DNA from: Candidatus Poribacteria bacterium
GTDB taxonomy: Bacteria > Poribacteria > WGA-4E > WGA-3G
Assembly (NCBI GenBank): GCA_963663765.2
Contig: CAXXUA010000004.1
Span: 480,001-544,000, forward strand
Length of the DNA stretch: 64,000 nt
Direction: 5' to 3'
In this document: piece by piece, positions 5,561-63,576 of the stretch
Layout of the letters: every line of letters begins with the position of its first letter
How positions within the stretch are numbered: position 1 is the stretch's first letter
Position numbers and translations under genes: made by a program
The notes under the pieces: generated by a model
The model's database searches: none
The model's input: only the letters and a program-made list of their open reading frames with translations
Told to the model about the DNA's origin: nothing

Positions 5561-5701
5561 TTGTTTCATTCTTTTGAGTTCTGATTCGGTGGGAAGTTTC
5601 TTGACAGCTCAACTCTATTTAAGGTATACTTGTTCAGAAAGTTAATATACATCGTATAAGAATCTTAACTTACCTTTCATGCTATTCTGGAGTTAGGAAA
5701 A

Positions 5702-48441: not shown

Positions 48442-49212
48442 CTACTCCTTAATCACAAAGAACTTCTCCTCCTTAATCTGTTCTTCTGAGAACCGCGCAC
48501 GCGTCCATATCGCCTTAGAATTCTCAATCATCTGTGGATGTCCGCATGCATACACAACCGAATTTGTATGGTCAAAACCCATCTGATCCCCATATTTCCG
48601 TATAACATCCTCTGCACGTCCACTTTCACCTTCCCAATCTGTATCTTCCCAAGGACGACTCACCGTCGGAACAAACGAAAACCACTCCTCCTGTGCAGCA
48701 AGCTCATTCATTTCATCCATATAATACCCCAGTTCCCATGAACGACTCGCACCAACAATCACAAGAATCTGATGTGGACTTGATTTTCCCTGTTCCTGCT
48801 CAATTTTCTGAGTGCGTGCAATACTAATATAGGGTGCAGCTCCAGTGACCGTACCTGCCATTACGTGACGCGTCATACCGCTTTCCGTATCCATTACAAA
48901 CTTTCCAACAAGACGATCCCTAATGAACACTTTATCACCAAGTTTCAATTCCCAAAACAGAGGAGTCGTCGCACCCTCAGGCACCAGCTCCACAAATACT
49001 TCCATAAATGGTTCGTGCGGAGACGAGACAATTGAATAGGGACGTTGTACAATCTTTTCATTAATCTCAAATCCAATTGTAGCATATTGTCCCGGAATGA
49101 AAGGGAGTTGTTGGTCAGTCTTGAATTTAAAAGCAGCTAAATCTTCCGAAAAATCTTCACGTTCAATAAGTTCACCCATACAGTAACGCGATCTGGAACT
49201 TCTTCTTTGCAT
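48442..49212 (-). CDS. fpr: Ferredoxin--NADP+ reductase (bacterial FPR type)
   Basis: PGQY, RPYSIVS, TGAAPY, YACGHPQMI, EEKF. Confidence 0.85.
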   Translation of the reverse strand: MQRRSSRSRYCMGELIEREDFSEDLAAFKFKTDQQLPFIPGQYATIGFEINEKIVQRPYSIVSSPHEPFMEVFVELVPEGATTPLFWELKLGDKVFIRDRLVGKFVMDTESGMTRHVMAGTVTGAAPYISIARTQKIEQEQGKSSPHQILVIVGASRSWELGYYMDEMNELAAQEEWFSFVPTVSRPWEDTDWEGESGRAEDVIRKYGDQMGFDHTNSVVYACGHPQMIENSKAIWTRARFSEEQIKEEKFFVIKE

Positions 49213-49557
49213 ATTCTCTTCCTTGATAGTTTTAGTTTGTGGTTTCTATTTACCTCCCATATATTATACTTAAAACACTATTCTTTATCAAATATTTTTT
49301 AACAGGGTTATTAAGTTTTCCTAATGTTCAGATTATATAAAAAGAGAAATCCCCTCGGTAGGAGCAACCTACCGGTCGCGATTTACACATCTAACGCGTA
49401 AAACGCGTAAAACTAAATAAACCTGATTTATTAATAACAGGACATACGTAAAAACGGTAGGCGCGCTTTGATGAAGATAAAAAAATACTTGGGTAATTCT
49501 CCTAATCCAGCCACGGTAGGCGTGCTTTGTAAACGAGTGGACACATCAAGTCCTAAG

Positions 49558-50193
49558 AGCGCGCTTACAAAGCACGCCTACAATCGGGGGCGCGCTTACA
49601 AAGCACGCCTACAATCGGGGACGCGCTTACAAAGCACGCATACAATCGGAGACGCGCTTACAAAGCACGCCTACAATCGGGGACGCGCTTACAAACCACG
49701 CCTACAATCGGGCGCGCTTACAAAGCACGCATACAATCGGGGACGCGCTTACAAACCACGCCTACAATCGGGCGCGCGCTTACAAACCACGCATACAACC
49801 GGGGACGCGCTTACAAACCACGCATACAATCGGGGACGCGCTTACAAACCACGCATACCAGCGGGGACGCGCTTACAAACCACGCATACAATCGGGGACG
49901 CGCTTACAAACCACGCATACAATCGGGGACGCGCTTACAAACCACGCATACAATCGGGGACGCGCTTACAAACCACGCATACCAGCGGGGACGCGCTTAC
50001 AAACCACGCATACAATCGGGGACGCGCTTACAAACCACGCATACAATCGGGGACGCGCTTACAAACCACGCATACAATCGGGGACGCGCTTACAAACCAC
50101 GCATACAATCGGGGACGCGCTTACAAACCACGCATACCAGCGGGGACGCGCTTACAAACCACGCATACAATCGGGGACGCGCTTACAAAGCAC
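49558..50193 (-). repeat. Tandem array of 21 REP-like 31-bp units
   Basis: Unit GGGGACGCGCTTACAAACCACGCATACAATC. The reverse complement of the leftmost copies is GTAG followed by a GCGTGCTT-TGT-AAGCGCGC hairpin; no unique spacers. Confidence 0.92.
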
Positions 50194-50567
50194 CAAATCA
50201 ACGGTATGAATCATGGAGCATGCCACACGCGCATGCTTCCTTAGGCATTCCCCGCCTAACGTCTGAAAAATATTTATTACCCGATTAATAAATTAATCTT
50301 CATACGGGATAATAAATTAATCTTCATACGGGAGTAAAAAGCGATGTTTATGTTTCAATAATCTAAAATTGATGTATAAAGTTCGGTTAGGAAAATGTAC
50401 CTGTGTATTAACTTTCAGTAATTCTCAATAACAGAAAACTCTTAAAACTGAATAACCTTGCGAGATTGCCATATTACTTGAGAACTAATAAACACTATGA
50501 TATACTTTAGCACAATTGAAGTGAAACAAAACCGTAGGATCTCAACCACCCATAAAGGAATCTATAG

Positions 50568-52160
50568 ATGAAGAATAGATTATTCAAGATGTTAGGATTG
50601 TTGATTGTAATCTTTGCAATTAAGACCCTTGGTTATGCACAAGACTACTCACAATGGCATCTACCACACGGTGCAACATTACGCATCGGCAAAGGGGAAA
50701 TCAACGATGTCGCATTTACCTCAGATGGAAATAAATTAGCAATCGCATCAGACATCGGTGTATGGATTTACAACGCACATACAGGTGCAGAAATTATAAT
50801 GTTGAAAGTACGTCCTCGTGGTGTTAATACGGCACATTGTATCACTTTTTCACCAGATAACAAAACGCTTGCAATTGGAAACTATGTGTTTGGGGGTGCT
50901 GTCGAATTGTGGGACACCGAGAAAGGAGAACTTATCTCTGTATTAAATGAAGATGTAGGAAGTGTGGAGGAATTAGTGTTTTCACCTGATGGCAAAATGC
51001 TTGCTTGTGCAAGTTGGTACCGCAATGTCATTTACCACATGTGGGAAGTAGAATCTGGTCGTGAGATGTTTCATTTTGTTGGGGAACAAGACACACTATA
51101 TAACGGATTAGCACTATCACCTGATGCGTTCTCTGTTGCAAGTGCTGCTAAAGAGGGTGTATATCTTTGGGATGCGACCAAAGGACAACTTAAACACACA
51201 TTAGTTCCTGGACAAGCGTGGTCATTAGGTTTCTCAACAGATAGTAAAACGCTTATCGGTGGGAGAACAACCCTAAACTCCTGGGATGTTGAATCAGGTA
51301 AGGAATTAACTGAATATAAAGAACATACTCGAAATGTTGAAGATATCGTCTTTTCTCCTGATGGCAAAACGTTCGCAAGTGGCGATACCGGCGGAAATAT
51401 CATCTTATGGAAGTTTGATCAACCTAATAAACAGATAGTTGACAAGGCAAAGAAACTTTCACTACCCAAAGTCCTAAAACCATTCACAGGTGACAAAAAG
51501 CAAAAAAACGACAATAAACTAATTAGACATAAGTTGACTGGACATACACTTCCAATCAGTGGATTAGATTTTACAGCAGATAGCAAAAAACTTGCTAGTG
51601 GTTCTGATGACGGAACTGCAAAGATTTGGAATGTTACAACAGGAAAAGAAATCCTAACAATTCAAGGACATACAGGCACAGTGAATATGTTGAAGATTTC
51701 TGCTGATGGAAAAACACTTTATTCTGCTTCGTCAGATGGAATCATAAGGTTGTATAATTTAGAGACCCAAGACGAACAACTCATACAAACCAAACAACCA
51801 TGGCATGCCTGGGATGCTGCTATCTCAAACGATGAAAAGTTAGTAGCAACAGGATGTTGGGGGGAAGTTAGAATCTGGGACATAGAAAAACAGGAATTCT
51901 ACGAACCGATGAAAAAAGATGGTAATTTTGCAACCGCAATTGCATTCTCTCCCGATAACAAAATTATTGCAAGTGGCCACTGGAAGGGAAAAGTTAGATT
52001 ATGGGATGTTGAAAACCTGCGTTTACACACCGAACTTGATGGACATACGGAAGACATCAACGATGTAGTATTTTCACCAGATGGTAAGAGTTTCGCAAGT
52101 GCAAGTAAAGATGGTACTGCATATATGTGGAATCTTGAAACTATGAAGGGAATTCTCTAA
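50568..52160 (+). CDS. Secreted WD40 protein, truncated by the tnpB element
   Basis: Signal peptide and WD40 repeats; ends abruptly at the IS left end; WD repeats resume at about 53524. Confidence 0.8.
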   Translation: MKNRLFKMLGLLIVIFAIKTLGYAQDYSQWHLPHGATLRIGKGEINDVAFTSDGNKLAIASDIGVWIYNAHTGAEIIMLKVRPRGVNTAHCITFSPDNKTLAIGNYVFGGAVELWDTEKGELISVLNEDVGSVEELVFSPDGKMLACASWYRNVIYHMWEVESGREMFHFVGEQDTLYNGLALSPDAFSVASAAKEGVYLWDATKGQLKHTLVPGQAWSLGFSTDSKTLIGGRTTLNSWDVESGKELTEYKEHTRNVEDIVFSPDGKTFASGDTGGNIILWKFDQPNKQIVDKAKKLSLPKVLKPFTGDKKQKNDNKLIRHKLTGHTLPISGLDFTADSKKLASGSDDGTAKIWNVTTGKEILTIQGHTGTVNMLKISADGKTLYSASSDGIIRLYNLETQDEQLIQTKQPWHAWDAAISNDEKLVATGCWGEVRIWDIEKQEFYEPMKKDGNFATAIAFSPDNKIIASGHWKGKVRLWDVENLRLHTELDGHTEDINDVVFSPDGKSFASASKDGTAYMWNLETMKGIL

Positions 52161-53523
52161 CAATCCCAAGTCTTTAGACTTGGGTCAAAAAACGTTGACA
52201 TTTTTATGTCTTCTATGGAATCCGTATAGGACTGACTCAGTGATAGGTGTTGACACACCTATCACACCACGTCAATGGAAGTCAGCACCCTACAGGAATC
52301 AGGTATGTCCTACAAAACACACAAGATTACATTGAATCCGAACAACAAACAACGCACATGGTTTACTCAGCAATGTGGTTATGCGAGGTTTGCCTACAAT
52401 CAAGCTTTGTCAGATTTTAAGGTAGGATTAGATAATGATAACTTCCAGTCGTGGCGCACCCTTAATAACAACTTCAACAAAGCGAAAAAGGGTTATGATT
52501 GGACACGTTCCCAAGATCAACGTGCAGCGTTATATGCGATCAAGAATTTGGGTCAAGCGATTACGAATTGGGTTAGCAAACGTGCGAGGTTTCCTCGATT
52601 CAAAAAGCGTGGGATTCGGGACGCATGGACAACAGACGAACAATCTGTGAAAGTTGAAGGCAAGAGGGTCCGGTTGCCTAAGGTTGGTTGGGTCAAAATG
52701 CGTCAAGCATTGCGTTTTGTAGGGAAGATTATCAGCGTGACGATCTCAAGGACAGCACATCGTTGGTTTATATCTATCACTGTAGAAACAGAGGACACCG
52801 AAGTCGTTGACAATTCAACGCACCCTGTTATCGGTATAGATGTAGGCATTAACACCCTTGCCACCTTGAGTAATGGCACGAAATATGATAATCCAAGACC
52901 TCTGAAACGCTATGAGAGAAAACTAAAGAGGGAACAACGCAAGTTGAGTCGGCGTGTTTTCAAGTCTAAAAACTGGTTCAAGCAGAAACACAAGTTAGAA
53001 CGTATCCACTATCGTATCGCTTGTATCCGAAATGATGCACACCACAAAGCAACTACAGAGATCGTCAACCTTGCATCTACTATCAGCATTGAGACACTAA
53101 AAATAACGAACATGCTAAAGAATAGAAAACTCGCGAAGGCATTATCGGATTCAGCGTTAGGTGGGTTTCTCAATAAGCTAAAAACGAAAGCAGATGCTTT
53201 CGGAATACCTGTATTACAAGCACCGCAATTCTATGCTTCAAGCAAAACTTGTAGTCGATGTAGACACAAGAAAGATGATTTGACACTATCAGAGAGAACT
53301 TATCATTGCAGTCAATGCGACTATCAAATAGATAGAGACATAAATGCTGCAATCAACCTAAGAACCCTCGCTGTCGGATAGACAGAGAGCATAAACGCTT
53401 GTGGAGTCCGAATAAGACCTCACGCGGTTCAGGATAGAGGCATGAGAGACGGAAGCAGGAATCACACAGAGGAGAGTTATGTGTTTCAAAGAAGCACACG
53501 ACTTTAGTCGTCGTGAGTATCAC
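52148..53523 (+). mobile_element. IS200/IS605-family tnpB-only (IS1341-like) element; boundaries approximate
   Basis: Left hairpin CCCAAGTC-TTTA-GACTTGGG; right hairpin CACGAC-TTTA-GTCGTCGTG followed by AGTATCAC; no tnpA. Confidence 0.8.
52305..53381 (+). CDS. tnpB: RNA-guided endonuclease TnpB
   Basis: N-terminal HTH, RuvC GIDVG / SIETL / DRDINAA, zinc finger CSRC...CSQC. The ORF is open from 52275. Confidence 0.92.
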   Translation: MSYKTHKITLNPNNKQRTWFTQQCGYARFAYNQALSDFKVGLDNDNFQSWRTLNNNFNKAKKGYDWTRSQDQRAALYAIKNLGQAITNWVSKRARFPRFKKRGIRDAWTTDEQSVKVEGKRVRLPKVGWVKMRQALRFVGKIISVTISRTAHRWFISITVETEDTEVVDNSTHPVIGIDVGINTLATLSNGTKYDNPRPLKRYERKLKREQRKLSRRVFKSKNWFKQKHKLERIHYRIACIRNDAHHKATTEIVNLASTISIETLKITNMLKNRKLAKALSDSALGGFLNKLKTKADAFGIPVLQAPQFYASSKTCSRCRHKKDDLTLSERTYHCSQCDYQIDRDINAAINLRTLAVG

Positions 53524-53543
53524 TAAAACATCCTTACCAATGG
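53370..53543 (+). ncRNA. Putative TnpB omegaRNA (right-end scaffold plus flanking guide)
   Basis: AACGCTTGTGGAG...GAAGCAGGAA scaffold motifs and the right-end hairpin. The guide would be the flank TAAAACATCCTTACC...; extent inferred. Confidence 0.55.
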
Positions 53544-53920
53544 GAGATAGTCGAGGAGTGGAAGCTTTAGCATTTTCTCCCGATAGCAGCATTCTCATAA
53601 CTGCAAGATGGAATGGTAGCATGCAAATTTGGGATACAAAGACACACCAACACATCGCGGAATTCATAAATGCAAGAGGAACTGTTGCTGGAATGGTCCT
53701 ATCACCTGACGGAAAAACTCTGGTAACGGGGTACCATGGTGGATTAGTTAGACTCTGGGATGTAGATACAAGATCACTTCGGTCCGAATTCAATACAGGA
53801 GATGCAGATGCACCAACACATTTCGCATTTTCATCAGATGGTAAGACACTTGTCAGTGGTAGTCGCAACGGCACAATCCTAATCTGGGATTTAGAAGAAA
53901 TGGGTATTGCAAATAGATAG
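53513..53920 (+). pseudogene. Orphaned C-terminal part of the WD40 gene at 50568
   Basis: Three WD repeats ending GTILIWD, no signal peptide; starts inside the IS right end. Confidence 0.75.
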
Positions 53921-53960
53921 CTTGAATATCAGATACCCAAGATATAACAGGAGTTAAACT

Positions 53961-56075
53961 ATGATATTCTCAAACAACTACCAAAATAAAACAATATCAA
54001 CATGCTTACTGATATGTCTATTTTACCTCACACATTGTGTTAGTGTACCCTCAAAACTATATGCAGCAGAAACAACGTATACTCAATGGAACTTACCCGA
54101 AGGCGCGAAAATGCGACTCGGAAAAGGAAGAATTAACGATATTGTCTACTCACCAGATGGGAAAAAGTTTGCTGTAGCAACAGCAATCGGGATATGGATT
54201 TACAGTGCAGACAGAGCAAAAGAACTCACACTAATAACTGGACATGACATAGAGATAGAAACCGTCGCGTTTACACAAGACGCACAATATATCATCAGTG
54301 CGGATTCAGAGGGAAAATGTCTAAAATGGGATGTCGCATCAGGAGAACTAATTGAGGTTATTGCTGAAGGAAACGTCATTTTCAATAAAGTTGATATTTC
54401 TGATAACGGTACAACTCTTGTTACATACGACCAGAATAGCAAATTTCATATAAAAAACATAAACGATCCCGATGCTGAACACAATGTTTTTGATGATACG
54501 GAGCGAGATCCAAGAATATTGAAAGTCTCTCCCAACGGAAGGACGATTGCAACTGCAAAAACACCTTTTTCTTCGTCTTCTGAAATTGCACCAAAGAACT
54601 ACAGACTCCAAGTTTGGGATACTAAAACACAATCATTACTCATTAATCTTCAAGGAGAAGACCCATATATACATGGCATCGAATTCACACCAGATGGTAA
54701 AAATGTAGTAACTTCGGATATTGATGGTGATATTCAGTTTTGGAATGTTGCAACTGGAACAACGACACATACATTCAAAGCAAATAATAGAGGAACAACT
54801 GCTATTGCCTTTGCACCCAAAGGTAAAATACTTGCAACAGGCGATTTTGAAAAAAATACGTTACAACTGTGGAAAATGCCTTCCACATCTAAACAACCCA
54901 AGTCCATTCAGACATTAAAAGGACACAAATCTTACATAAGAAATTGTGTATTTTCACCTGATGAGAAAACTATTCTCACCGCAAGCCAAAATGGGATAAT
55001 AATGGCTTGGGATGTTGTCACAGGTAAGCAAAAATACAATATCACAGGCCATGTCGGACGTATCCTTGAACTTACTCATACTGATTCCGATAACAATATT
55101 ACCAGTGCAAATTCCAATGTATATGTATGGTCTCATCCTGTTACACATTTACGCAATTGGGATATAAAAACTGGTAGTCTAACGTCAACTGCCCTTGTAG
55201 AATTGATAAAAATAGAAACAGTGTCACCCAATTGTAAGACAATAGTTTATACAAAAGAGGATAAAAAAATCCACTTGTGGGATACAGAAACAATGAAAAA
55301 CAGACTCACAATTACAGCAGATGAGGAATACAAACTCGGCGAATATTACATCCTCTCTTCAAATGAAGAGTTTCTGGCTATTAGTAGCACCGAGGAACCA
55401 ATCTATGTGTGGAACATATCTGATGAATCTGAAACAAGAAAACCGTGGAAATCTCTAATTACAGACTCAAAATCTCCTCATATAATGACTTTCTCACCGG
55501 ACGGTAAGTTTTTAGCAAGTGATGATGGTTTATATACTATACATCTATGGAATGTGGAGATGGAAGAAATTCTATCTACTTTTACAATACATGACAATCA
55601 CGGTGATAAAAAATGGACATACTATAGGAATAACTCAAAAGGTCTTGCTATTTCTCCAGATGGTAAAAAACTTGCATGTGGGAGAGAAGATGCAATTTAC
55701 TTATGGAATACAATTACAGACGATGAAATAAGTGTTTTAATTCCAGAACGACTTTCCGACAATTATATGACATTGCTGTTTTCACCAGATAGCAACATCC
55801 TATTGAGTGCATGCAACGGAATAATTATCAAATACGCTCCCGGTCAGATAGTAAAACCAGATGGTGGTAATGTCACGAAATCTTCCAGTATGTATGGTGG
55901 AGGTACATTTCAACTGTGGGATGCCAACTCAGGTGAATTGATAACGACACTAACTGGACATAGCGATGTTATTGACGCATTTACGTTTTCAAAAGATGGA
56001 AAAACACTCGCAACTGGCAGTTGGGACGGCACAATTCTATTCTGGGATTGGGAAAAAATCTCATCTTTGCGTTAG
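53961..56075 (+). CDS. Secreted WD40 protein, array member 1
   Basis: Signal peptide, QWNLPEGAKMRLGKG, WD40 repeats, ends GTILFWDWEKISSLR. Confidence 0.9.
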   Translation: MIFSNNYQNKTISTCLLICLFYLTHCVSVPSKLYAAETTYTQWNLPEGAKMRLGKGRINDIVYSPDGKKFAVATAIGIWIYSADRAKELTLITGHDIEIETVAFTQDAQYIISADSEGKCLKWDVASGELIEVIAEGNVIFNKVDISDNGTTLVTYDQNSKFHIKNINDPDAEHNVFDDTERDPRILKVSPNGRTIATAKTPFSSSSEIAPKNYRLQVWDTKTQSLLINLQGEDPYIHGIEFTPDGKNVVTSDIDGDIQFWNVATGTTTHTFKANNRGTTAIAFAPKGKILATGDFEKNTLQLWKMPSTSKQPKSIQTLKGHKSYIRNCVFSPDEKTILTASQNGIIMAWDVVTGKQKYNITGHVGRILELTHTDSDNNITSANSNVYVWSHPVTHLRNWDIKTGSLTSTALVELIKIETVSPNCKTIVYTKEDKKIHLWDTETMKNRLTITADEEYKLGEYYILSSNEEFLAISSTEEPIYVWNISDESETRKPWKSLITDSKSPHIMTFSPDGKFLASDDGLYTIHLWNVEMEEILSTFTIHDNHGDKKWTYYRNNSKGLAISPDGKKLACGREDAIYLWNTITDDEISVLIPERLSDNYMTLLFSPDSNILLSACNGIIIKYAPGQIVKPDGGNVTKSSSMYGGGTFQLWDANSGELITTLTGHSDVIDAFTFSKDGKTLATGSWDGTILFWDWEKISSLR

Positions 56076-56218
56076 TTTAAGTCTTGTCATTTTTGTAAAT
56101 GAGGCATGACTAATTCAACATTTTATATGGAGTTTGTATATGAAAAAGTTTTTAATGTTTTACTTTCTATCCTTGCTAATTTCAATCCAATTTCTACCAA
56201 ATGGATATGCTCAAGACT
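56028..56218 (+). repeat. Conserved WD40-array junction J1
   Basis: Near-identical to 58141-58331 and 59999-60189. Confidence 0.9.
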
Positions 56219-58188
56219 ATACTACACGATGGAACGTGCCTGAAGAAGCTATCGTGCGTCTCGGTAGGGGAATTATTTACGATATCAAATATTCTCAAGA
56301 CGGGTCCAAATTTGCTGTCGCTACATCTATAGGGATTTGGATTTATGATGCCCTCACAGGAAGAGAGCTTAAGTTTCTTAATACACCAAGCAATCTCATT
56401 AAAATAATAGAGTTCTCACCCGACGACAACATTATCGCTGGTGCATCCTCGGATGAGGTCCTATTGTGGAATATGGATACAGAAAAACTATCTACAACTT
56501 TACCTGCCCCGAAGGGTATTAAGATCTTATATTTCTCCGTAGATGGATCAAAACTCACTTGTATTGGAAATGAAGGGCAGATTCGCGTATGGAATCTCAT
56601 GGCTGAAAAAACGAATATGGAATTTAAGGATATAAAGTTTGGTTCAGAATATTTAAAAGGTTCAAGCTCTTATTCGTTTGCGATATCGCCAGATAGACAC
56701 TTATTAGCTGCTGTATTTTATGCACAGCGTACGTACCAATTTCGAGTATGGAACATTAACACTGGAAAGTATATCAGAGCAGCAGCCGGCGATTGGGGGT
56801 ATGGATCAAAACTTGTATTTTCACCAAACAGTAAATTCCTTGCAAGTGTCCGCGGATTTAGATCTATTGGAATTTGGGAAGTGGGAACGGACAGTCGTGA
56901 GGAAACTTTTATTGGTTCTTCTCATAGTGGAATTGTCACATTAGTTTTTTCACCAAAAGGTAAGTTCCTCGCTGCTGCAAATAGGGTTGGCGTGCGGTTA
57001 TATAACAAAGCAATTGCACGGCATCCACCATGGACATTACTAGAACGTAATGATGGTTTTCCACTAATTCTCAACAAAGGTAAAAGCGATATTTATTTGC
57101 TTGCGTTTTCTCCTGACGAAGGCACGCTCCTTGCAGTCAGTAGTAACGGTACAATCAGTGCATGGAATACTATAACTTGGGACCAAGCGTTCAGTATAAC
57201 AGAACATCCAAGCTACATAAAAGGCCTTAAGTTTACCAAAAAAGATGGCACATTAACCAATACACTCACAAGTTATTCTGGTTTTAGAAACATCCGAATA
57301 CAACTATGGGATCTAAATCTGGGAAAACAACTTAAGGCAGAATACTTAGATGTCAGGGGTAGCGGGGTAGTTGAACCTTATGGTGGGACTGTCGTTAGTA
57401 CTAATAACGATGGTACTATAAAAGTATGGGATGTTAAAACCAAAAAGCCGATCGCTATTTTGAAAGGACAACCCACAGCAGACCCATATAATCGATTGAC
57501 CATTTCACATGGAGGTGAAATCGTTGCAAGCGGCGGAAAAGACACATTTGTTAGAGTGTGGAATACTCGTAATCTTAAACAAAACACACCTCAATTCACA
57601 CTTAAAGGACATACTTCACCAATTGAAAATTTAACATTTTCACCTGATGGAAAGACTTTAGCTTCCAGCAGTTATGATACTACAAATAGGAAGTATATAA
57701 TTCGCTTGTGGAACATGACCAATGGAAAACTATTATCTAATATCACACCGAACAAAAATATAGTTAAGACATTAGCATTTTCTCCAGATGGTAAAATACT
57801 CGTGACTGCCTCAGGTGACGATAGTCTTCGTCTATGGAACATAACTAACGCCACTCAAATTTCGGTTATCAAAAACCAAAAGGGCGTAAGTACTATACAG
57901 TTTGCTCCAGATGGTAAGACATTGGTAATTGGTAAGTGGAATGGAACAATAAATGTTTGTAGGTTAGACACTAACTATAATGTACCTCTTATTAATACGT
58001 TATCATCAATGCTTAGTGGAATGAAGAATTCCATCACGAAGGAAGAAACATCTAATCCATATTTTAGAGGACATACGTTTGCGGTTTCAGTGTTAGAATT
58101 CTCTCCTAACGGAAAAACGCTCGCAAGCGGTAGCAAAGACGGCACAATTCTACTCTGGGATTGGAAAAAAATTACATCTTTGCGTTAG
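56140..58188 (+). CDS. Secreted WD40 protein, array member 2
   Basis: MKKFLMFYFLSLLISIQFLPNGYAQD signal peptide; ends GTILLWDWKKITSLR. Confidence 0.9.
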   Translation: MKKFLMFYFLSLLISIQFLPNGYAQDYTTRWNVPEEAIVRLGRGIIYDIKYSQDGSKFAVATSIGIWIYDALTGRELKFLNTPSNLIKIIEFSPDDNIIAGASSDEVLLWNMDTEKLSTTLPAPKGIKILYFSVDGSKLTCIGNEGQIRVWNLMAEKTNMEFKDIKFGSEYLKGSSSYSFAISPDRHLLAAVFYAQRTYQFRVWNINTGKYIRAAAGDWGYGSKLVFSPNSKFLASVRGFRSIGIWEVGTDSREETFIGSSHSGIVTLVFSPKGKFLAAANRVGVRLYNKAIARHPPWTLLERNDGFPLILNKGKSDIYLLAFSPDEGTLLAVSSNGTISAWNTITWDQAFSITEHPSYIKGLKFTKKDGTLTNTLTSYSGFRNIRIQLWDLNLGKQLKAEYLDVRGSGVVEPYGGTVVSTNNDGTIKVWDVKTKKPIAILKGQPTADPYNRLTISHGGEIVASGGKDTFVRVWNTRNLKQNTPQFTLKGHTSPIENLTFSPDGKTLASSSYDTTNRKYIIRLWNMTNGKLLSNITPNKNIVKTLAFSPDGKILVTASGDDSLRLWNITNATQISVIKNQKGVSTIQFAPDGKTLVIGKWNGTINVCRLDTNYNVPLINTLSSMLSGMKNSITKEETSNPYFRGHTFAVSVLEFSPNGKTLASGSKDGTILLWDWKKITSLR

Positions 58189-58380
58189 TTTAAGTCTTGT
58201 CATTTTTGTAAATGAGGCTTGAATGATTCAACATTTTATAAGGAGTTTATATATGAAAAAGTTTTTAATGTTTTACTTTCTATCCTTACTAATTTCAATC
58301 CAATTTCTACCAAACGGATACGCTCAAGACTTTACACAATGGAACTTACCCGAAGGCGCGAAAATGCGACTCGGAAAAGG
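58141..58380 (+). repeat. Conserved WD40-array junction J2
   Basis: Near-identical to J1 and J3; its last 44 bp are identical to 54084-54127. Confidence 0.9.
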
Positions 58381-60046
58381 TGAGATAAACGATATTAAGT
58401 TTTCGCCTGATGGCAATCTGTTAGCCGTGGGTACCAGCATTGGGATTTGGATCTATGATGTACAAACGCGTAAAGAAGTCAACTTTTTGAAATCAAATAA
58501 ATATCAGATAGACGCATTAATGTTTATAGAAAATGGAAAAAAAATAGTAAGTGCTGGTGTAGACGGTCCAAGTAGCAGGATTATAACTTGGGAGGCGAAA
58601 ACAGATTCTTCACTGGACAAACTTATCATGCAAAAATATGGTGAACGATTATCTGGTACTGGTTATATTTGGTCATCGGCACTATCACATAACGGCAATC
58701 TGTTAGCGGTTGGAAATGGAAGCGGTTCAATTCATTTGGTTGACACACGTACGGGTAACCGAATCTCAACCTTTAAAGCACATTCGGACAGTGTAAATGG
58801 TTTAGCATTTTCACTGGACAGCAGCACTCTGGTAAGTGGAAGTACGGACTCAAAAATTTACATGTGGGACGTTGCCACTCAAAAACGTCAGCAAACCCTA
58901 ACCCGGTTATCTGAGACTCACGCGATAGCATTTAGTCCTGATGGAAAAAGAGTCGCGAATGGGAATTTTGGTGGTGGTCTATACATATGGGACATAGAAT
59001 CAAAACAAAAACTCATGACATTCAAAGGACATACGGATGCTATAAGAACGTTAGCATATTCCCCTGATGGTAAAATGTTAGCAAGTGGTAGTTGGGACAA
59101 AACAATTCGCTTGTGGGACACTAAAACGGGAAATCAAATTGCAATTATAAATGGACATCCCCATTTTGTAGAAAGAATGGCTCTTGCACCTGATGGAAAC
59201 TACGTATCTGGTACAGCTCGAGGTTTAATCAATATTTGGGATACAAGAACACGTCAAGAAATCCATTCACAGACGAGAAATGAATACAGTTTAGTCAGAG
59301 GTTTAGCATTTACAAACAATTCTACACAACTATATAGTGTGAATGTAGGATTTGAACTTGCTCTTACAGATGCATCAAACAACCAAAAATTGTTTACCAA
59401 ACAATTTAAAGGACACAAGGGAGCTAATTGGGCAATTTCTTTTAACCCAAGCAGAACAATAATCGCAAACGCCTACAGAGATATGAATATCCGTCTGTGG
59501 AATGTTAATACAGGAATAGAACTTACTGCAATTCATTCCGGTTTTAAGGAAGCAATCATTGACTTGACTTTTTCTGCTGATGCAAAAATGTTAGCAGGAG
59601 CAGGAAAGGAAGGAGATATTCGAATTTGGAACACAAGCAATGGAAAGTTGTTATTCACACTGACTGGACACGCAAAAAGGGTTGAATCCTTAGCATTTTC
59701 TCCTAATGGCAAAATGTTAGCAAGTGCCAGTTGGGATGGTACAATGCGTCTGTGGGACATAGAAGCGGAAAGACAAATCTCACAACACGCAAATGGTCGT
59801 ATAGGAGGAATTATTGAAGTAGTGTTTTCATTAGATGGTAAGACAATCGTAAGCACGAGTACTTCAAGACAGATTCAATTGTGGAAGATATACGATAATC
59901 GTCAGATGCCTGCGGTTACGCTCACTGGACACAACGGATGGATTAGAACTCTTGAATTCTCCGAAGATGGTAAAACGCTTGCAAGCGGAAGCGATGATGG
60001 CACTATTCTACTCTGGGATTGGGAAAAAATTACATCTTTGCGTTAG
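58253..60046 (+). CDS. Secreted WD40 protein, array member 3
   Basis: Same signal peptide; RBS AGGAG before ATG 58253; ends GTILLWDWEKITSLR. Confidence 0.9.
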   Translation: MKKFLMFYFLSLLISIQFLPNGYAQDFTQWNLPEGAKMRLGKGEINDIKFSPDGNLLAVGTSIGIWIYDVQTRKEVNFLKSNKYQIDALMFIENGKKIVSAGVDGPSSRIITWEAKTDSSLDKLIMQKYGERLSGTGYIWSSALSHNGNLLAVGNGSGSIHLVDTRTGNRISTFKAHSDSVNGLAFSLDSSTLVSGSTDSKIYMWDVATQKRQQTLTRLSETHAIAFSPDGKRVANGNFGGGLYIWDIESKQKLMTFKGHTDAIRTLAYSPDGKMLASGSWDKTIRLWDTKTGNQIAIINGHPHFVERMALAPDGNYVSGTARGLINIWDTRTRQEIHSQTRNEYSLVRGLAFTNNSTQLYSVNVGFELALTDASNNQKLFTKQFKGHKGANWAISFNPSRTIIANAYRDMNIRLWNVNTGIELTAIHSGFKEAIIDLTFSADAKMLAGAGKEGDIRIWNTSNGKLLFTLTGHAKRVESLAFSPNGKMLASASWDGTMRLWDIEAERQISQHANGRIGGIIEVVFSLDGKTIVSTSTSRQIQLWKIYDNRQMPAVTLTGHNGWIRTLEFSEDGKTLASGSDDGTILLWDWEKITSLR

Positions 60047-60238
60047 TTTAAGTTTTGTCATTTTTGTAAATGAGGTCTGACTAATTCAACATTTTATATG
60101 GAGTTTATATATGAAAAAGTTTTTAATGTTTTACTTTCTATCCTTGCTAATTTTAATCCAATTTCTACCAAACGGATACGCTCAAGACTTTACACAATGG
60201 AACTTACCCGAAGGCGCGAAAATGCGTATCGGCAAAGG
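59999..60238 (+). repeat. Conserved WD40-array junction J3
   Basis: Near-identical to J1 and J2. Confidence 0.9.
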
Positions 60239-62102
60239 AAGAGCAAATGACATCACTTTTACACCAGATGGCACCCAAATTGCTGTCACGACCAGTATCG
60301 GCATTTGGATTTATGATGCTGAGTCAGGTATAAAAGTTGCATTTCTTAAACAAGCTGGACAGGGTTTTGGTAAAGTTGCAATTTCACCAGATGGACACAC
60401 GTTAGCATGTTCAACTGGCAGAAACGGACGTGGAGAAGTCCAACTTTGGGACATCACAGAACGTAAAATTATTACAACTTTAAGTTCACCTATTGGAATA
60501 TCTTCACTGTTTTTTTCAAAAGATGGGACAATACTTGCTTGTGCCGGGTATTTTGGACGTGTTTATGTGTGGGAATTAGGAGCTAACAATACAAACACGC
60601 TTATTACAGATACAAGATTAAATGAAACAAGCTGGGATACAAACAGTTTGGTTGAATTGTCTCCAGATAGACGTTTTCTGGCAGTCTCTTCCGCGGATTG
60701 GCAAAATAGAAACTTTCAAATTGAAATATACAATGCAGCCAATGGGAAACTACTACATACCCTAACTGGACATACACGATGGATCAGATGCCTCGCTTTT
60801 TCTCCAGATAGTAAGACAATAGTGAGTGGAGATGAATATGAATCGCTCCGTATGTGGGATACTGAAACAGGGAAACTAAAATCAACTATGCAATGGAGAC
60901 GTGGTATTTCAACCTATTCGCTGGTTTTTTCTCCGAAGGGAAGTTTTCTTGCTACTGGACATCGTGATGGTATTCGCTTGTGGCATTCTAATACTGAAGA
61001 AGGACAACAGCAGCGGATCTATACCATCGGTACGTATCAAAATATTGTAAATTTAAGGGAGCAAAAAGATTACATTTACCGATTTACGTTTTCCCCTGAC
61101 GAAACAATGCTGCTTTCAGGTAGCAAAGATGGAACGATTACTGCCTGGGATACGACTAGTGGAAACGAAGTGTTTACAATCAATGGTCACCTTGAAGGTG
61201 TTCGAGTTATTGCACTCTCTGAAACTGGGGATACACTTACAACTTTGAATCAGCCATACAATCCTCCTGGAAAAATTCAACAGCGACATTGGGATGTCAA
61301 TACAGGTGAATTGCTGTCTACCGTCTTCTCAAGAGAATCAGAAGGAGGACACATGGTAATCTCACCGGATGGGAAAACGCTTGCTACACACAGTGTATCT
61401 GGTAACTGTTCTTTATGGAATATAAAAACTGATCCTCCACAGAGGGTTTCTTCGTTTGCCTTAGAAGGATATCCAAGATCAGGTTTGAATGTTAGATTCG
61501 CATTCTCCTTAGATGGATCTATGATGGCTGCTGGCGGCGAGGATCATGCAGTTCACGTCTGGAGTTTAAGTGATAATGCAAGTTCACTTCAGCATCAGTT
61601 CACTGCAAAAGAACATACAGAAAATGTCTGGGCGTTGGCATTTTCACCCGATGGCACAAAGCTTGCTACTGGTGGTAGAGACAAAGAGTTTCATATTTGG
61701 AATGTGGCAGATGGTAAAACGATACAAACACTATCAGGACATAGTTGGCGAGTGAACTGTTTTGCGTTTTCACCGAATAATCAAGTTTTAGCAAGTGGAA
61801 GTTATGAACTATTTCTATGGCATGTCAAGTCCGGTATGCAGATTAAACACATCAAACAACACCAGAATGCAATTATAGAAGCATTGACTTTTACACCAGA
61901 CAACAACTTACTTATTATTGCAGCTCGTGATGGATTAAAGTTGTATGAACTGCAAACGGAACGACTTATCACAATAAACCAAGACTACACAAGTCTACTC
62001 AAATTGTCAGTGGTTGACAACCTGCTCATAAGTGTAAGTAGATATGATGAAATCTTAATCTGGGATTGGCAGAAAGTGCTTGAACGGTTGAAGGACAATT
62101 AG
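60111..62102 (+). CDS. Secreted WD40 protein, array member 4
   Basis: Near-identical signal peptide, WD40 repeats, unique C-terminus ILIWDWQKVLERLKDN. Confidence 0.9.
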   Translation: MKKFLMFYFLSLLILIQFLPNGYAQDFTQWNLPEGAKMRIGKGRANDITFTPDGTQIAVTTSIGIWIYDAESGIKVAFLKQAGQGFGKVAISPDGHTLACSTGRNGRGEVQLWDITERKIITTLSSPIGISSLFFSKDGTILACAGYFGRVYVWELGANNTNTLITDTRLNETSWDTNSLVELSPDRRFLAVSSADWQNRNFQIEIYNAANGKLLHTLTGHTRWIRCLAFSPDSKTIVSGDEYESLRMWDTETGKLKSTMQWRRGISTYSLVFSPKGSFLATGHRDGIRLWHSNTEEGQQQRIYTIGTYQNIVNLREQKDYIYRFTFSPDETMLLSGSKDGTITAWDTTSGNEVFTINGHLEGVRVIALSETGDTLTTLNQPYNPPGKIQQRHWDVNTGELLSTVFSRESEGGHMVISPDGKTLATHSVSGNCSLWNIKTDPPQRVSSFALEGYPRSGLNVRFAFSLDGSMMAAGGEDHAVHVWSLSDNASSLQHQFTAKEHTENVWALAFSPDGTKLATGGRDKEFHIWNVADGKTIQTLSGHSWRVNCFAFSPNNQVLASGSYELFLWHVKSGMQIKHIKQHQNAIIEALTFTPDNNLLIIAARDGLKLYELQTERLITINQDYTSLLKLSVVDNLLISVSRYDEILIWDWQKVLERLKDN

Positions 62103-62139
62103 GTAACAGATTACGTGGAGTTTATGTCCATCCACTAAC

Positions 62140-63576
62140 CTACATCTCCGCCAACTTCCTCTGTAACCACTTTGTCATCGGTGCATAGCTCGGATCACAG
62201 ACCTCAAGCAAATGTCCCGGTAGCGGTTGTCCGATCACTGCTTCAACATCGCGCCGTCGTTCCGATACGACTTCAGGGTGATCACTCGCTACATTGTTCT
62301 TTTCTTCAGGGTCATTTATAACATCAAAGAGTTCATCTCCTTTTTCATCTATAAAACCAACAGAAGTGCAGAAGTTCCAATGATCGTCGCGCACACTCAC
62401 ACGTCCAACAGCATTACCTGTAGTGAAACCTGCCCAGCCATTGATAATCCGTTCGCGGAGAAACGCTTTCTCTTGTGTCACAAGTTGCCACATATCTTCA
62501 CCATCTGTCCAATCACACGGAATATCAACAAGATTTAGCAGTGTCGGCATTATATCATGGTTCTGCACAAACGCTGAAATGTCCTTGTCGTGCGGTCCAT
62601 CAGGATGACGTATCATCAAGTTCAACTGAGTATTATATGGATGTAACTTGTTCGCACCTTTACCAAAACTACCATGGTCTCGCAGTTGCGTGCCGTGGTC
62701 TGACATCAGCATTACAAGCGTCTCATCGTGAATGTCTAATGACTCAATCTTGTCCAACAACGCACCGACCCATTTGTCAACAAATGTTACTTCTCCCAGA
62801 TAAAGTGCTTCAATTCGGTTAAGTTCCTCTTCAGAAGGTCTCCCACCTTCATTTGCACTACCACGTGAGATGAAATCTTTACCAGAATAATCAGGTGAGT
62901 AGATATCAGCATAGGATTTCGGTGGATCCCAAGGTTCATGTGGATCGAAACTATCTACCCACAGGAAAAATGGTCCGACTGTGTGATTATCTTGCAACCA
63001 ATCCGCAGCAGAACGGAACACACGCGCACAACTATAGTCATCATCTGTTTGACGATGACGTTGACCCAATAGATAGTTCACAAGTCCTGCATGCCGTTTC
63101 CAATTGATAGGTTCACGTACATGGTTTCGCAGCGTATCCTCAATCAACCGTGGATCCCCACTCTGCCAATTGTCTGATTCCTGACCACGGATAAAGTCAA
63201 AATGTGCAAACCCACGTGAGAAATTCATAGTCGGTTTGAACATGTGGTACGTATCTGCGATGATAGCAGTAAGATAGCCGCGTTCCAGAAGCACTTCTGC
63301 AATCGTATCCTGTTCCGGCGGTATCTTGTGCCAACCAGCAGCGTGATGCCAATGTCCACGTCGATCAAAGTTATATCTCCACGGAAAAGTCCGCATCCCA
63401 GTGAAGTTACCACGACGTACCTGTAATGTGGGTTGACATTCACCATAAGCACGGGTGAAACGCACGCTTTCTGATGCAAACGCATCAAGGTTCGGCGTTT
63501 GCACATGGCTATACTTCTTACCTTCACCAATGATGTCCGCACGAAATGTGTCTAAACAGATACAAATAATATTCAT
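62140..63576 (-). CDS. Sulfatase/alkaline-phosphatase superfamily hydrolase
   Basis: NIICICLDTFRAD, TPNLD, FDPHEPW, MSDHG, DIMPT, ELFDVINDPEE. Confidence 0.85.
   Translation of the reverse strand: MNIICICLDTFRADIIGEGKKYSHVQTPNLDAFASESVRFTRAYGECQPTLQVRRGNFTGMRTFPWRYNFDRRGHWHHAAGWHKIPPEQDTIAEVLLERGYLTAIIADTYHMFKPTMNFSRGFAHFDFIRGQESDNWQSGDPRLIEDTLRNHVREPINWKRHAGLVNYLLGQRHRQTDDDYSCARVFRSAADWLQDNHTVGPFFLWVDSFDPHEPWDPPKSYADIYSPDYSGKDFISRGSANEGGRPSEEELNRIEALYLGEVTFVDKWVGALLDKIESLDIHDETLVMLMSDHGTQLRDHGSFGKGANKLHPYNTQLNLMIRHPDGPHDKDISAFVQNHDIMPTLLNLVDIPCDWTDGEDMWQLVTQEKAFLRERIINGWAGFTTGNAVGRVSVRDDHWNFCTSVGFIDEKGDELFDVINDPEEKNNVASDHPEVVSERRRDVEAVIGQPLPGHLLEVCDPSYAPMTKWLQRKLAEM

Follow-up and report, generated by a model that had tools for sequence, protein, structure and literature searches.

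Organization of the WD40 array

The window analysed here is a stretch of 64,000 nucleotides (480,001 to 544,000 of the forward strand of contig CAXXUA010000004.1) from a Candidatus Poribacteria MAG (assembly GCA_963663765.2). At 53961..62102 of the window lie four consecutive genes for secreted WD40 proteins (g1 to g4), joined by three junctions (J1 to J3) that overlap the ends of the genes on either side. The locus and its flanks are organized as follows.

48442..49212, minus strand: FNR-like oxidoreductase, left synteny anchor of the variable locus (Pfam FAD_binding_6 and NAD_binding_1)
50568..52148, plus strand: 5' part of g0, a fifth secreted WD40 gene, IS-interrupted (Pfam WD40; 85% DNA match to g0 of the related genome G016)
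52149..53536, plus strand: IS200/IS605-family element inside g0, tnpB only (ORF 52275-53381; Pfam OrfB_IS605, Cas12f1-like_TNB and HTH_OrfB_IS605)
53537..53920, plus strand: 3' part of g0, the last three WD repeats and its own tail (in DNA, 88% match to g0 of G016 at the 3' end; Pfam WD40)
53961..56075, plus strand: g1, secreted WD40 gene whose signal peptide is unique and whose tail is of the junction type (ORF call of 704 aa; Pfam WD40)
54084..54127, plus strand: 44-nt perfect match between the N-terminal motif of g1 and the same motif in J2 (alignment; 98% over 48 nt by genome search)
56028..56218, plus strand: J1, the g1 tail, stop, 64-nt spacer, RBS and g2 signal peptide (179/191 identical to J2, 180/191 to J3)
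56140..58188, plus strand: g2, secreted WD40 gene with the array-type signal peptide in place of its native one (682 aa from ATG, 684 from TTG at 56134; body clade g2)
58141..58380, plus strand: J2, the g2 tail, spacer, g3 signal peptide and N-terminal motif (227/241 identical to J3; 95% by genome search)
58253..60046, plus strand: g3, secreted 13-blade double WD40 propeller (597 aa from ATG; body clade g3)
59999..60238, plus strand: J3, the g3 tail, spacer, g4 signal peptide and N-terminal motif (by alignment; 227/241 identical to J2)
60111..62102, plus strand: g4, secreted WD40 gene whose head is of the array type and whose terminal tail is its own (663 aa; body clade g4)
62140..63576, minus strand: sulfatase, right synteny anchor (Pfam Sulfatase)

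All four genes are WD40 by Pfam (E=1e-48 to 1e-87). They are complete, co-oriented ORFs, each with a start, an RBS and a signal peptide, and are not silent cassettes. The true upstream start of the array is g0 (50568-52148 plus 53537-53920), a fifth gene split by an IS: the intact g0 of G016 encodes 657 aa, the DNA match of the window g0 runs up to 52148, and relative to G016 the insert measures 1388 nt. Four other copies of this IS are found in the genome at 93% identity or more, and about 25 at 78-80%. The WD40 family to which the array belongs comprises 40 ORFs in this one genome, some with Por-type C-terminal sorting tails. A consensus scan of 49000-62300 found 43 promoter-like sites (38.0 +/- 4.9 in shuffled sequences) and 8 terminator-like sites (8.7 in shuffles), numbers that are uninformative on transcription units; no site of either kind fell inside any junction.

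The putative Sec-type (SPase I) signal peptide of the array, read by eye, consists of MKK, a 16-residue hydrophobic stretch and G-Y-A followed by QD. An AlphaFold model of g3 (pLDDT 86.5, pTM 0.84) has 52 strands, corresponding to 13 blades, and begins with a helix at residues 2-17 followed by a disordered linker. The best Foldseek match is 2YMU (E=7e-42), and eukaryotic double propellers also match. Strand counting in the model suggests that strand 36-40 pairs with the last blade in a "velcro" closure.

Junctions are nearly identical, bodies are not

The sequence-only reading had described near-identical junctions between divergent gene bodies, and this description proved accurate. Over a core of 191 nt the three pairs of junctions are identical at 179, 180 and 181 positions (93.7-94.8%), with the copies equidistant (10-12 differences per pair), as against a protein identity among bodies of 25-34% (blastp); between bodies no DNA match of at least 85% was found. 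Particulars of that reading also held: its junction coordinates are off by no more than a few bases, stop and ATG are separated by 64 nt at every junction, J2 and J3 do extend into the motif QWNLPEGAKMR(L/I)GKG, and the outer ends are unique (the signal peptide of g1 and the terminal tail of g4). The perfect 44-bp stretch shared by g1 and J2 reappeared in our alignment; it could be a motif that is conserved or a small patch of conversion separate from the others.

The boundaries of the identical tract are sharp. When the stretch between -40 and +139, counted from the stop, is cut into 20-nt windows, all three pairs agree at 16-20 of 20 positions, against 2-10 of 20 deeper in the bodies; at the tract ends agreement falls from 18-20 to 4-9 of 20 within one or two windows. 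For J1 the likeness ends directly after the signal peptide, between AQD and YTT. Positions at which change should be nearly neutral follow the same pattern. Copies of the non-coding spacer differ at 4-6 of 64 positions (58-60 identical; about 91-94%), and all four-fold sites compared in the junctions are identical, both in the signal-peptide segment (8/8 for g2-g3, 7/7 for g2-g4 and 7/7 for g3-g4; 22/22 in total) and in the tails (3/3, 3/3 and 5/5; 11/11 in total), whereas four-fold sites in the bodies are saturated, with only 13/53 to 23/81 in agreement. The earlier claim that bodies are less alike than junctions thus extends to synonymous sites. By comparison, the sulfatase of this genome agrees with that of the two nearest species, G016 and G045, at only 65-69% of four-fold sites.

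The whole 6.35-Mb genome contains three copies of the junction only, and no near-identical copy of any body was found elsewhere in it. Within the window, repeats are confined to the junctions and generic WD units.

Heads and bodies have different histories

Comparisons between species were based on 40 related genomes, one genome per species. A tree of 36 bodies and a tree of heads (spacer plus signal-peptide DNA) gave conflicting pictures. In the body tree each body of the window falls in a different clade together with orthologues from other species (SH-aLRT 100 for five clades and 99 for that of g4). Within its clade, the g1 body is sister to a gene of G005 (76% identity across 554 tree columns; blastp and tblastn give 74%), the g4 body is 84% identical (aa) to a gene of G014, and g2 sits on a long branch (0.42 vs 0.06-0.13 for its closest orthologues). 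In the head tree, on the other hand, g2, g3 and g4 group together in a single clade (SH-aLRT 100). AU tests, for which the groups were chosen after the trees had been seen, rejected each head grouping with the clade of its body (p=1.3e-5, 6.7e-4 and 7e-3, the first being g2) and rejected the bodies of g2, g3 and g4 as a single clade (p=2e-55). The head segment includes positional non-coding DNA, so that some clustering by position is to be expected among heads. The clade to which the window heads belong has 12 members, every one of them from a non-first gene, with four different body types.

Orthologues of g2 in G014, G005, G021 and G043 share another signal peptide, and the point at which the window gene switches lies exactly at the cleavage region. 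The heads of g2 to g4 are more alike within this genome than each is to the heads of its orthologues, and the clustering of heads against body clades is the signature of junction-restricted gene conversion. No sequence resembling the junction at 85% or more over its length was found in the 40 relatives: the best whole-junction match is 68% (G014), and elsewhere the last WD repeat alone matches. At the protein level the closest signal peptide by eye is that of a g3 orthologue, P0003. By this sequence comparison, the junction is specific to the lineage.

The FNR-sulfatase locus varies among species

The FNR-like orthologue lies beside the locus in most relatives (86-97% aa) and the sulfatase is present in 31/31 genomes of the genus (85-95% aa). 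Between these anchors the 40 related genomes carry from 0 to 5 WD40 genes, whose content and order vary, and the bodies of relatives sit at this same locus. The order is g2-g1 in G005, G015 and L033 and g1-g2 in the window; the tail of g4 is of the type found in the last genes of G014 and G015. Some genes of the locus are chimeras of head, body and tail: in G021, for example, a g2 body is joined to a g4-type tail. The junctions following g2 in G014 (where g4 comes next) and in G005 (where g1 does) are alike by eye despite the different downstream body. In the two nearest species (95-96% complete) no g1- or g2-type body was found genome-wide at E<=1e-60, which leaves room for a gain in the window lineage. 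Homogenised junctions were absent from 5/5 related arrays with at least three genes (two or more junctions).

A comparison of cassette number and order had been proposed as a check on the sequence-only reading. Run between species, it bears out that over evolutionary time bodies disappear, change places and acquire other heads and tails by recombination. This marks the gap between FNR and sulfatase, across a genus of sponge symbionts, as a hypervariable site for eukaryote-like WD40 proteins that are secreted. Such proteins are standing candidates for symbiont-host recognition, and a defined locus at which their repertoire turns over offers a concrete place for comparing strains and hosts.

Within-species data

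Within the species, the data were Logan contigs of four runs, which break inside the junction repeats (breakpoints at 56091-56153, 58204-58351 and 60129-60197 in all four) and so do not themselves confirm the gene order; no long piece spanning a junction was found among them. In three runs from two studies all four bodies are present with 0 differences and at equal depth, the same as that of the flanking sulfatase (166-184 in run X2, 56-76 in X3). Run X1, from a third study, contains pieces of all four bodies from a strain that is 93-99% identical. Each contig passes from a body into copy-specific junction bases. The earlier suggestion that alternative orders might be seen at the junctions was followed up in these contigs, in which rare variants are invisible: there were no reliable alternative joints. 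The 15 listed joints have sides of 20-45 nt that link WD repeats, and were treated as noise from paralogs or other organisms.

Explanations for the pattern

Ordinary homologous recombination (gene conversion, unequal crossover and deletion) at the conserved gene termini of a birth-and-death array is probably what lies behind the identity pattern, the identity at neutral sites, the conflict between trees and the variability between species. According to this explanation, ancient and long-diverged paralogs for secreted double WD40 propellers would reside in a recombination-prone locus of a poribacterial sponge symbiont. In the lineage of the window a module of about 190-240 nt – the last strand of the upstream gene, stop, 64-nt spacer, RBS and downstream signal peptide, plus the N-terminal motif in two copies – would have been copied non-reciprocally between neighboring junctions by general (RecA-type) homologous recombination, overwriting the heads native to g2, g3 and g4 and the tails native to g1, g2 and g3. 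Two stretches of DNA conserved throughout the family would set the bounds of the tract: on the left the last WD repeat, on the right the QW-LPEGA-RLGKG motif. Over evolutionary time deletions, unequal crossovers and chimeras may arise by crossing over at the same termini, so that gene number, gene order and combinations of head, body and tail would come to differ between species. Dependence on RecA and the direction of copying are what such a model implies, and selection for diversification would not be needed. The equidistance of the three copies suggests a single episode in the past, with no hint that homogenisation continues; an array put together at that time through insertions at the junction would be equally expected to show it.

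In that last scenario, foreign or ectopic units of body plus junction, for example circles from the array of another strain, could have been inserted recently by single crossovers; each insertion duplicates the junction, and the junctions would then be the homology arms of an exchange pool among conspecific strains. Besides equidistant copies, as after a single duplication burst, this account draws on the lack of any g1 and g2 bodies in the nearest species, the long branch of g2, and array content and order that vary in nearly every species. We nevertheless consider it unlikely: no donor was found, either as a junction-like sequence in the 40 relatives or as a near-identical body elsewhere in the genome, the bodies of relatives are all at this locus, the strain in X1 carries pieces of the same four bodies, and most patterns are explained by differential loss from a larger ancestral array. 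A related and rather more doubtful idea is that the junction is a selected portable adaptor, providing the downstream body with an export signal (and, in J2 and J3, a velcro strand) and the upstream body with the matching last-blade strand, while strains exchange units of body plus junction. If this were so, any body placed between two junctions would be exported and correctly closed, and symbiont populations would share a reshufflable pool of secreted host-facing propellers. That purifying selection alone, with no recombination, has prevented change in a signal peptide and regulatory spacer that are old and shared is hardly credible: signal peptides and ribosome-binding regions are functionally constrained, but the contrast in four-fold sites between junctions and bodies, and the different heads borne by g2 and g4 orthologues in other species, refute it on synonymous and phylogenetic grounds alike. 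It is likewise highly improbable that the assembly fused contigs from different strains at a 190-nt repeat common to them, giving a four-gene order that exists in no cell. Contigs of all four runs do break within the junction repeats; however, the genome is assembled in 15 contigs for 6.35 Mb (this one of 1.19 Mb), a repeat of 190-240 nt with 94% identity would pose no difficulty if the reads were long, and the exact matches and sulfatase-like depth of the bodies in three runs, together with the passage of contigs from bodies into copy-specific junction bases, speak against such an artefact.

A further proposal is a programmed system of diversification or phase variation, like Mycoplasma vsp/vpma, pilS or the vls type, in which the junction would be the site of a dedicated recombinase and propellers would be switched at high frequency. 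The general architecture fits, since in vpma/vsp a conserved 5' region and signal peptide precede variable mature parts (PMC2268961), and the products are secreted and of a class proposed for host interaction (PMC3909097). Such a system is very unlikely all the same. A Pfam scan that covered 41 ORFs, 28 of them upstream of the array (150 aa or longer) and the other 13 within or around it, detected no integrase, Xer, invertase or reverse transcriptase; as to recombination machinery, it returned only the IS605-type TnpB in g0 and a DDE_Tnp_1-associated ORF about 25 kb away. The genes share one orientation, are complete and have their own RBS; inverted repeats are neither required nor seen, and neither a single expression site with silent or promoterless cassettes nor invertible segments are present at the array. 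Equal depth of the four bodies, the lack of reliable joints in four runs and the unhomogenised junctions of 5/5 related arrays point the same way. Integron-type cassettes were rejected (no integrase in the scanned ORFs of the window, and a junction that is coding on both sides), as was a diversity-generating retroelement (no RT domain in the scanned ORFs, and repeats that are junctions and generic WD units). The suggestion of the sequence-only reading that the array is a diversification system is not supported in the sense of a dedicated or currently active one, given no recombinase in the scanned ORFs, complete genes, unhomogenised related arrays, equidistant copies and no reliable alternative joints in the contigs. 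Its alternative wording, that junctions are homology arms or are homogenised by conversion, survives in the second part, on the strength of synonymous and non-coding identity and of the conflict between head and body trees, and not as a dedicated exchange system.

Relation to known systems

Segmental gene conversion is known between bacterial paralogs, for example babA/babB of Helicobacter pylori and tufA/tufB. As in those cases, the WD40 array has a short non-reciprocal tract between paralogs, recognizable by neutral-site identity and by conflict between the trees of tract and gene; it differs in that the tract crosses a gene boundary, has reached three junctions and is flanked by bodies that are far more diverged (25-34% aa).

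The tandem paralog cluster lpl of S. aureus is closer in one respect: its unit, as described by Tsuru and Kobayashi (2008, PMC2568036), comprises the 3' region of one ORF, the intergenic stretch and the next ORF's 5' region, a junction-spanning unit that is met again in the WD40 array. The lpl genes, too, stand in tandem, are of a secreted or lipoprotein-like kind and are presumed to have a part in host interaction, and recombination at conserved intragenic DNA shuffles their parts and alters gene number (PMC2568036). In lpl, however, the conserved site lies mid-ORF and the junction units are variable (PMC2568036), whereas in the WD40 array the junctions are homogenised and the central bodies variable: a conserved central crossover region is replaced by bodies that share no DNA match of at least 85%, with the conserved DNA at ORF ends. 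The variation in lpl is among strains of one species (PMC2568036), that of the WD40 locus among species of a genus. A junction-spanning evolutionary unit is, on this account of lpl (PMC2568036), already in print, and the WD40 array does not represent a new bacterial recombination mechanism.

The vpma cluster of M. agalactiae and the vsp cluster of M. bovis are clustered families with conserved 5' untranslated and signal-peptide regions and differing mature parts (PMC2268961), a feature shared by the WD40 array. They are switched by site-specific inversion through an adjacent Xer1 at a single promoter (PMC2268961), whereas the WD40 array has no recombinase among its scanned ORFs, is co-oriented and complete, includes the upstream tail in its conserved block and shows no population heterogeneity in contigs. 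Poribacteria are described as having abundant WD40 genes, often with export signals or Por-type C-terminal sorting domains, which have been proposed as mediators between symbiont and host (Kamke et al. 2014, PMC3909097). The section of that paper on eukaryote-like repeats deals in domain counts; tandem arrays, a hypervariable locus and junction conversion are not described there. Among the titles and opening lines of abstracts in the listed matches for gene conversion, signal peptides and tandem paralogs, no bacterial case was found.

The array is a clean and extreme case in which recombination confined to termini gives export signals, spacers and closing strands a history uncoupled from that of the bodies. 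For annotation this carries a warning: neither the 5' nor the 3' end of these WD40 genes allows orthology to be called. An all-against-all search of family paralogs in this genome gave 21 pairs with head-only or tail-only likeness, 16 of them outside the array, and in these outside pairs the termini are 88-100% alike in DNA and the bodies 47-83% in protein.

Organization of the array

The array consists of four tandem genes (g1-g4), which together with a fifth, interrupted gene upstream (g0) lie between two conserved anchors:

48442-49212, FNR-like oxidoreductase, left side of the array
53961-56075, g1, co-oriented with g2-g4, WD40 by Pfam, putative N-terminal export signal
56140-58188, g2, co-oriented with g1, g3 and g4, WD40 by Pfam, putative N-terminal export signal
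58253-60046, g3, co-oriented with g1, g2 and g4, WD40 by Pfam, putative N-terminal export signal
60111-62102, g4, co-oriented with g1-g3, WD40 by Pfam, putative N-terminal export signal
62140-63576, sulfatase, right side of the array

Alignment of the three junctions (J1, g1 to g2; J2, g2 to g3; J3, g3 to g4) shows a nearly base-for-base match. In 20-nt windows, all three junction pairs share 16-20 of 20 bases from -40 to +139 nt around the stop; deeper inside the bodies (the central propeller parts) the same windows share 2-10 of 20. Within a 191-nt core 179, 180 and 181 positions are identical between copies, the likeness of J2 to J3 extends to 227 of 241 positions, and the spacer is 64 nt long at every junction. 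The bodies are 25-34% identical (blastp), and body-versus-body DNA comparison gave no match of 85% or more. The sequence-only reading, which had described near-identical junctions with 64-nt spacers joining divergent bodies, was thus correct. The genome search that it proposed (6.35 Mb) found the junction three times and nowhere else: the further matches are one of 48 nt, in g1, and nine short ones (75-88%) that fall in other paralogs, at their N-terminal motif.

Neutral sites and phylogeny

The four proteins were aligned, their codons compared, and four-fold degenerate codons encoding the same amino acid counted. In the bodies the third base agrees at 22/67, 15/48, 17/64, 22/57, 23/81 and 13/53 sites: these sites are saturated. 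Agreement is complete both over the signal peptides of g2, g3 and g4 (8/8, 7/7, 7/7) and in the tails (last strands) of g1, g2 and g3 (3/3, 3/3, 5/5); in the non-coding spacer 4-6 of the 64 positions differ between copies. The four-fold and spacer identities together make protein-level selection impossible as the cause. Bodies as alike as junctions at synonymous sites, the expectation that the sequence-only reading attached to simple recent duplication, were not found.

A maximum-likelihood tree of 36 bodies, with heads (spacer and signal-peptide starts) and tails trimmed off, comprises six clades (SH-aLRT 100 for five, 99 for the g4 clade); each window body falls in a separate clade, beside genes of other species. 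In the tree of head DNA (spacer plus signal peptide) the heads of g2, g3 and g4 unite with support of 100, inside a group of 12 heads (support 90), every one from a non-first gene and with bodies of four types. AU tests reject the placement of each head with the clade of its own body (g2, p=1.3e-5; g4, p=6.7e-4; g3, p=7e-3) and of the three bodies as a single clade (p=2e-55), the groups having been named post hoc, with the trees already seen, and the head segment including positional non-coding DNA. Judged from these trees, the bodies are old and the heads young. The g2 orthologues of four relatives (G014, G005, G021 and G043) have a different signal peptide in common; in the window's g2 the array-type peptide gives way to sequence of the g2 type precisely where cleavage is expected, at the cleavage region.

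The FNR-sulfatase locus in related genomes

Searches of 31 genomes of the genus recovered the sulfatase from all 31. Its side of the locus was compared in 20 species representatives and 24 further contigs of Poribacteria, which are sponge symbionts; four of these contigs are the same records as four representatives, giving 40 distinct relatives, whose WD40 genes were typed by best blastp match to the window bodies. Between zero and five WD40 genes occupy the gap. The FNR-like gene directly adjoins the sulfatase in G001, G009, L043, L044 and L050; one WD40 gene is present in G010, G022, G008, G021 and others; two are present in G014 (g2, g4), G005 (g2, g1), G002, G012 and G007 (g1-like, g3) and G016 (g0 plus a broken g3); three in L036, L037 and L072; four in G015, and four plus a fragment in L034. 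G005, G015 and L033 have the order g2-g1, as against g1-g2 in the window. Variation in cassette number and order, which the sequence-only reading had proposed to compare between strains, is seen between species. No g1- or g2-type body was recovered from either of the two nearest species, G016 and G045 (95-96% complete), at E<=1e-60 with the window queries; such bodies may have been lost there or gained in the window.

Some genes at this locus show signs of disruption. Two overlapping ORFs, through frameshift or decay, make up g3 of G016 (L012 7891-9668) and likewise g2 of G043 (L016 13885-15937). In L034 the start of a g0-like gene, 408 nt long and comprising the head plus the first ~100 codons, occurs a second time upstream of a 182-aa fragment (3303-3710 and 5293-5700, 84% identical), as what is left of a partial duplication at the locus.

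Origin of the junction identity

The best full-length match to the junction among the 40 relatives is 68% (G014), and the remaining matches cover the last WD repeat only: the junction as such is lineage-specific. J1, J2 and J3 are equidistant (10-12 differences), a pattern that points to a single episode, after which the copies drifted independently. Four-fold sites of the sulfatase are 65-69% alike between the window and the nearest species; on this comparison the episode is younger than their split.

General homologous recombination is, in our view, the probable explanation of the array. Gene-conversion tracts of ~190-240 nt would begin and end in two family-conserved DNA stretches and be copied across junctions within the window lineage; deletions, unequal crossovers and chimeras would arise by crossover at the same conserved termini, and so could remodel the array between species. 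Of the earlier proposal that junctions act as homology arms or are homogenized by conversion, the homogenization is supported; a dedicated payload-swapping system is not. Among 41 window ORFs a Pfam scan found no integrase, invertase or reverse transcriptase, the mobile-element ORFs being limited to a TnpB inside g0 and a distant transposase-associated ORF, and a promoter/terminator scan found no such site in the junctions. Self-comparison of 12 related arrays, five of which have at least two junctions (L015, L034, L036, L037, L072), gave no junction-to-junction match of 80% or more: the sole repeats are the partial gene duplicate of L034 and an internal repeat in L037. With no machinery among these ORFs, no homogenization in related arrays and no support for shuffling from contigs (below), a programmed system is very improbable. 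Assembly of the array by insertion of units (body plus junction) from conspecific strains is a better candidate, albeit an unlikely one.

The array stretch is present in six sequencing runs of three studies, and contigs of four were compared. Every body is covered by contigs of X2, X3 and X6 (from two studies) that show 0 differences from it and end inside the junction repeats; depth is equal over bodies and flank in the two deep runs (X2, 166-184; X3, 56-76), X6 being about 4-5 deep. X1, from the third study, holds pieces of g1, g2, g3 and g4 from a strain 93-99% identical. An assembly artefact is slightly less probable still than a programmed system, and selection alone, given the neutral sites, is the least probable of all. 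Contigs are incapable of showing gene order or rare variants: a fixed array is not proven by these data, and active shuffling gains no support from them. The alternative joints listed in the runs have sides of 20-45 nt that link WD repeats and were distrusted.

Recombination at gene ends in the wider family

The window's genome contains 40 ORFs with a common signal peptide and QW-LPEGA-RLGKG motif followed by WD40 repeats. In 21 family-gene pairs heads or tails are at least 88% alike in DNA; 16 of these lie outside the window array, with bodies of 47-83% protein identity and some on separate contigs. A gene of G021 (L024 15596-17653) is a chimera of g2 body and g4-type tail. The ending WDWEKI[AS]S[VML]R closes internal genes of several species irrespective of body, while last genes of arrays have other tails; by eye, the junctions of G014 (g2 to g4) and G005 (g2 to g1) look alike, with different bodies downstream. 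The chimeras and the pairs restricted to heads or tails indicate that terminus-confined recombination is a habit of the family, with the window array as the extreme case.

The 40 ORFs (contigs C3, C5, C6, C7, C13 and C15) include subgroups with near-identical heads or tails across contigs; C13_41563 and C5_1102648 have heads 100% identical over 147 nt and bodies 78% identical (aa). The C-terminal ends are of three types: plain WD, dockerin-like (D-x-N-G-D-G) tails and tails like Por/T9SS sorting domains. The last agrees with a remark on Por-type domains in excerpts of PMC3909097, which also report abundant WD40 proteins and export signals in Poribacteria; no description of the FNR-sulfatase WD40 locus was found in those excerpts. 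From excerpts of PMC2568036, the closest described case is the lpl cluster of S. aureus, where the unit of evolution spans the junction. The geometry is inverted: in lpl the crossover site is the conserved centre of the ORF, and it is the junction unit that varies. The Mycoplasma vpma/vsp genes, as excerpted from PMC2268961, resemble the window array in their conserved 5' region and signal peptide, but use the Xer1 recombinase.

Predicted structure of g3

g3 was modelled with AlphaFold from 18 orthologues (pLDDT 86.5, pTM 0.84). Residues 2-17, the putative signal peptide, form a helix, and a disordered linker follows. Of the 52 strands one (36-40) belongs to the N-motif; 12 blades of four strands each come next, and a last blade of three strands ends at 585-589. 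Its fold matches tandem WD40 propellers (best 2YMU, E=7e-42). Counted in this way, the last blade lacks a fourth strand, which the N-motif strand would be expected to supply (velcro closure). By this layout each junction carries the strand that closes the upstream protein, and J2 and J3 add the downstream protein's complementary N-terminal strand; the latter lies outside J1, so the pairing is not a rule.

g0 and neighboring features

Four further features lie in or to the left of the array:

35792-37672, minus strand, WD40 gene outside the variable locus; its repeats are very regular (PF00400, E=8e-119, nine matched stretches)
45862-48345, gX, secreted WD40 propeller with C-terminal trypsin-like peptidase domain (PF13365, E=5.5e-33)
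49560-50193, 31-nt tandem repeat (20.5 copies, 94% matches), between the FNR-like gene and g0
52149-53536, IS200/IS605-family element with tnpB only (ORF 52275-53381), inside WD40 gene g0

The fifth array gene, g0, is interrupted by this IS605-type element of 1388 nt; g0 of G016 is intact. The genome has other copies as well, four of 93% identity or higher and about 25 of 78-80%, numbers and identities that mark the IS family as active or recently active. Related tnpB genes occur near the same locus in G007 (69% aa) and in L048 (88%). In four runs contig depth over the 31-nt repeat exceeds the flanking depth 50-100-fold, and the unit is thus multi-copy. A 258-aa ORF over the repeat (49468-50244) has no Pfam match and is probably spurious. 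At the corresponding position G007 also carries a tandem repeat (L026 11084-11525). Several relatives have a conserved gX (44-62% aa) upstream of their FNR gene.
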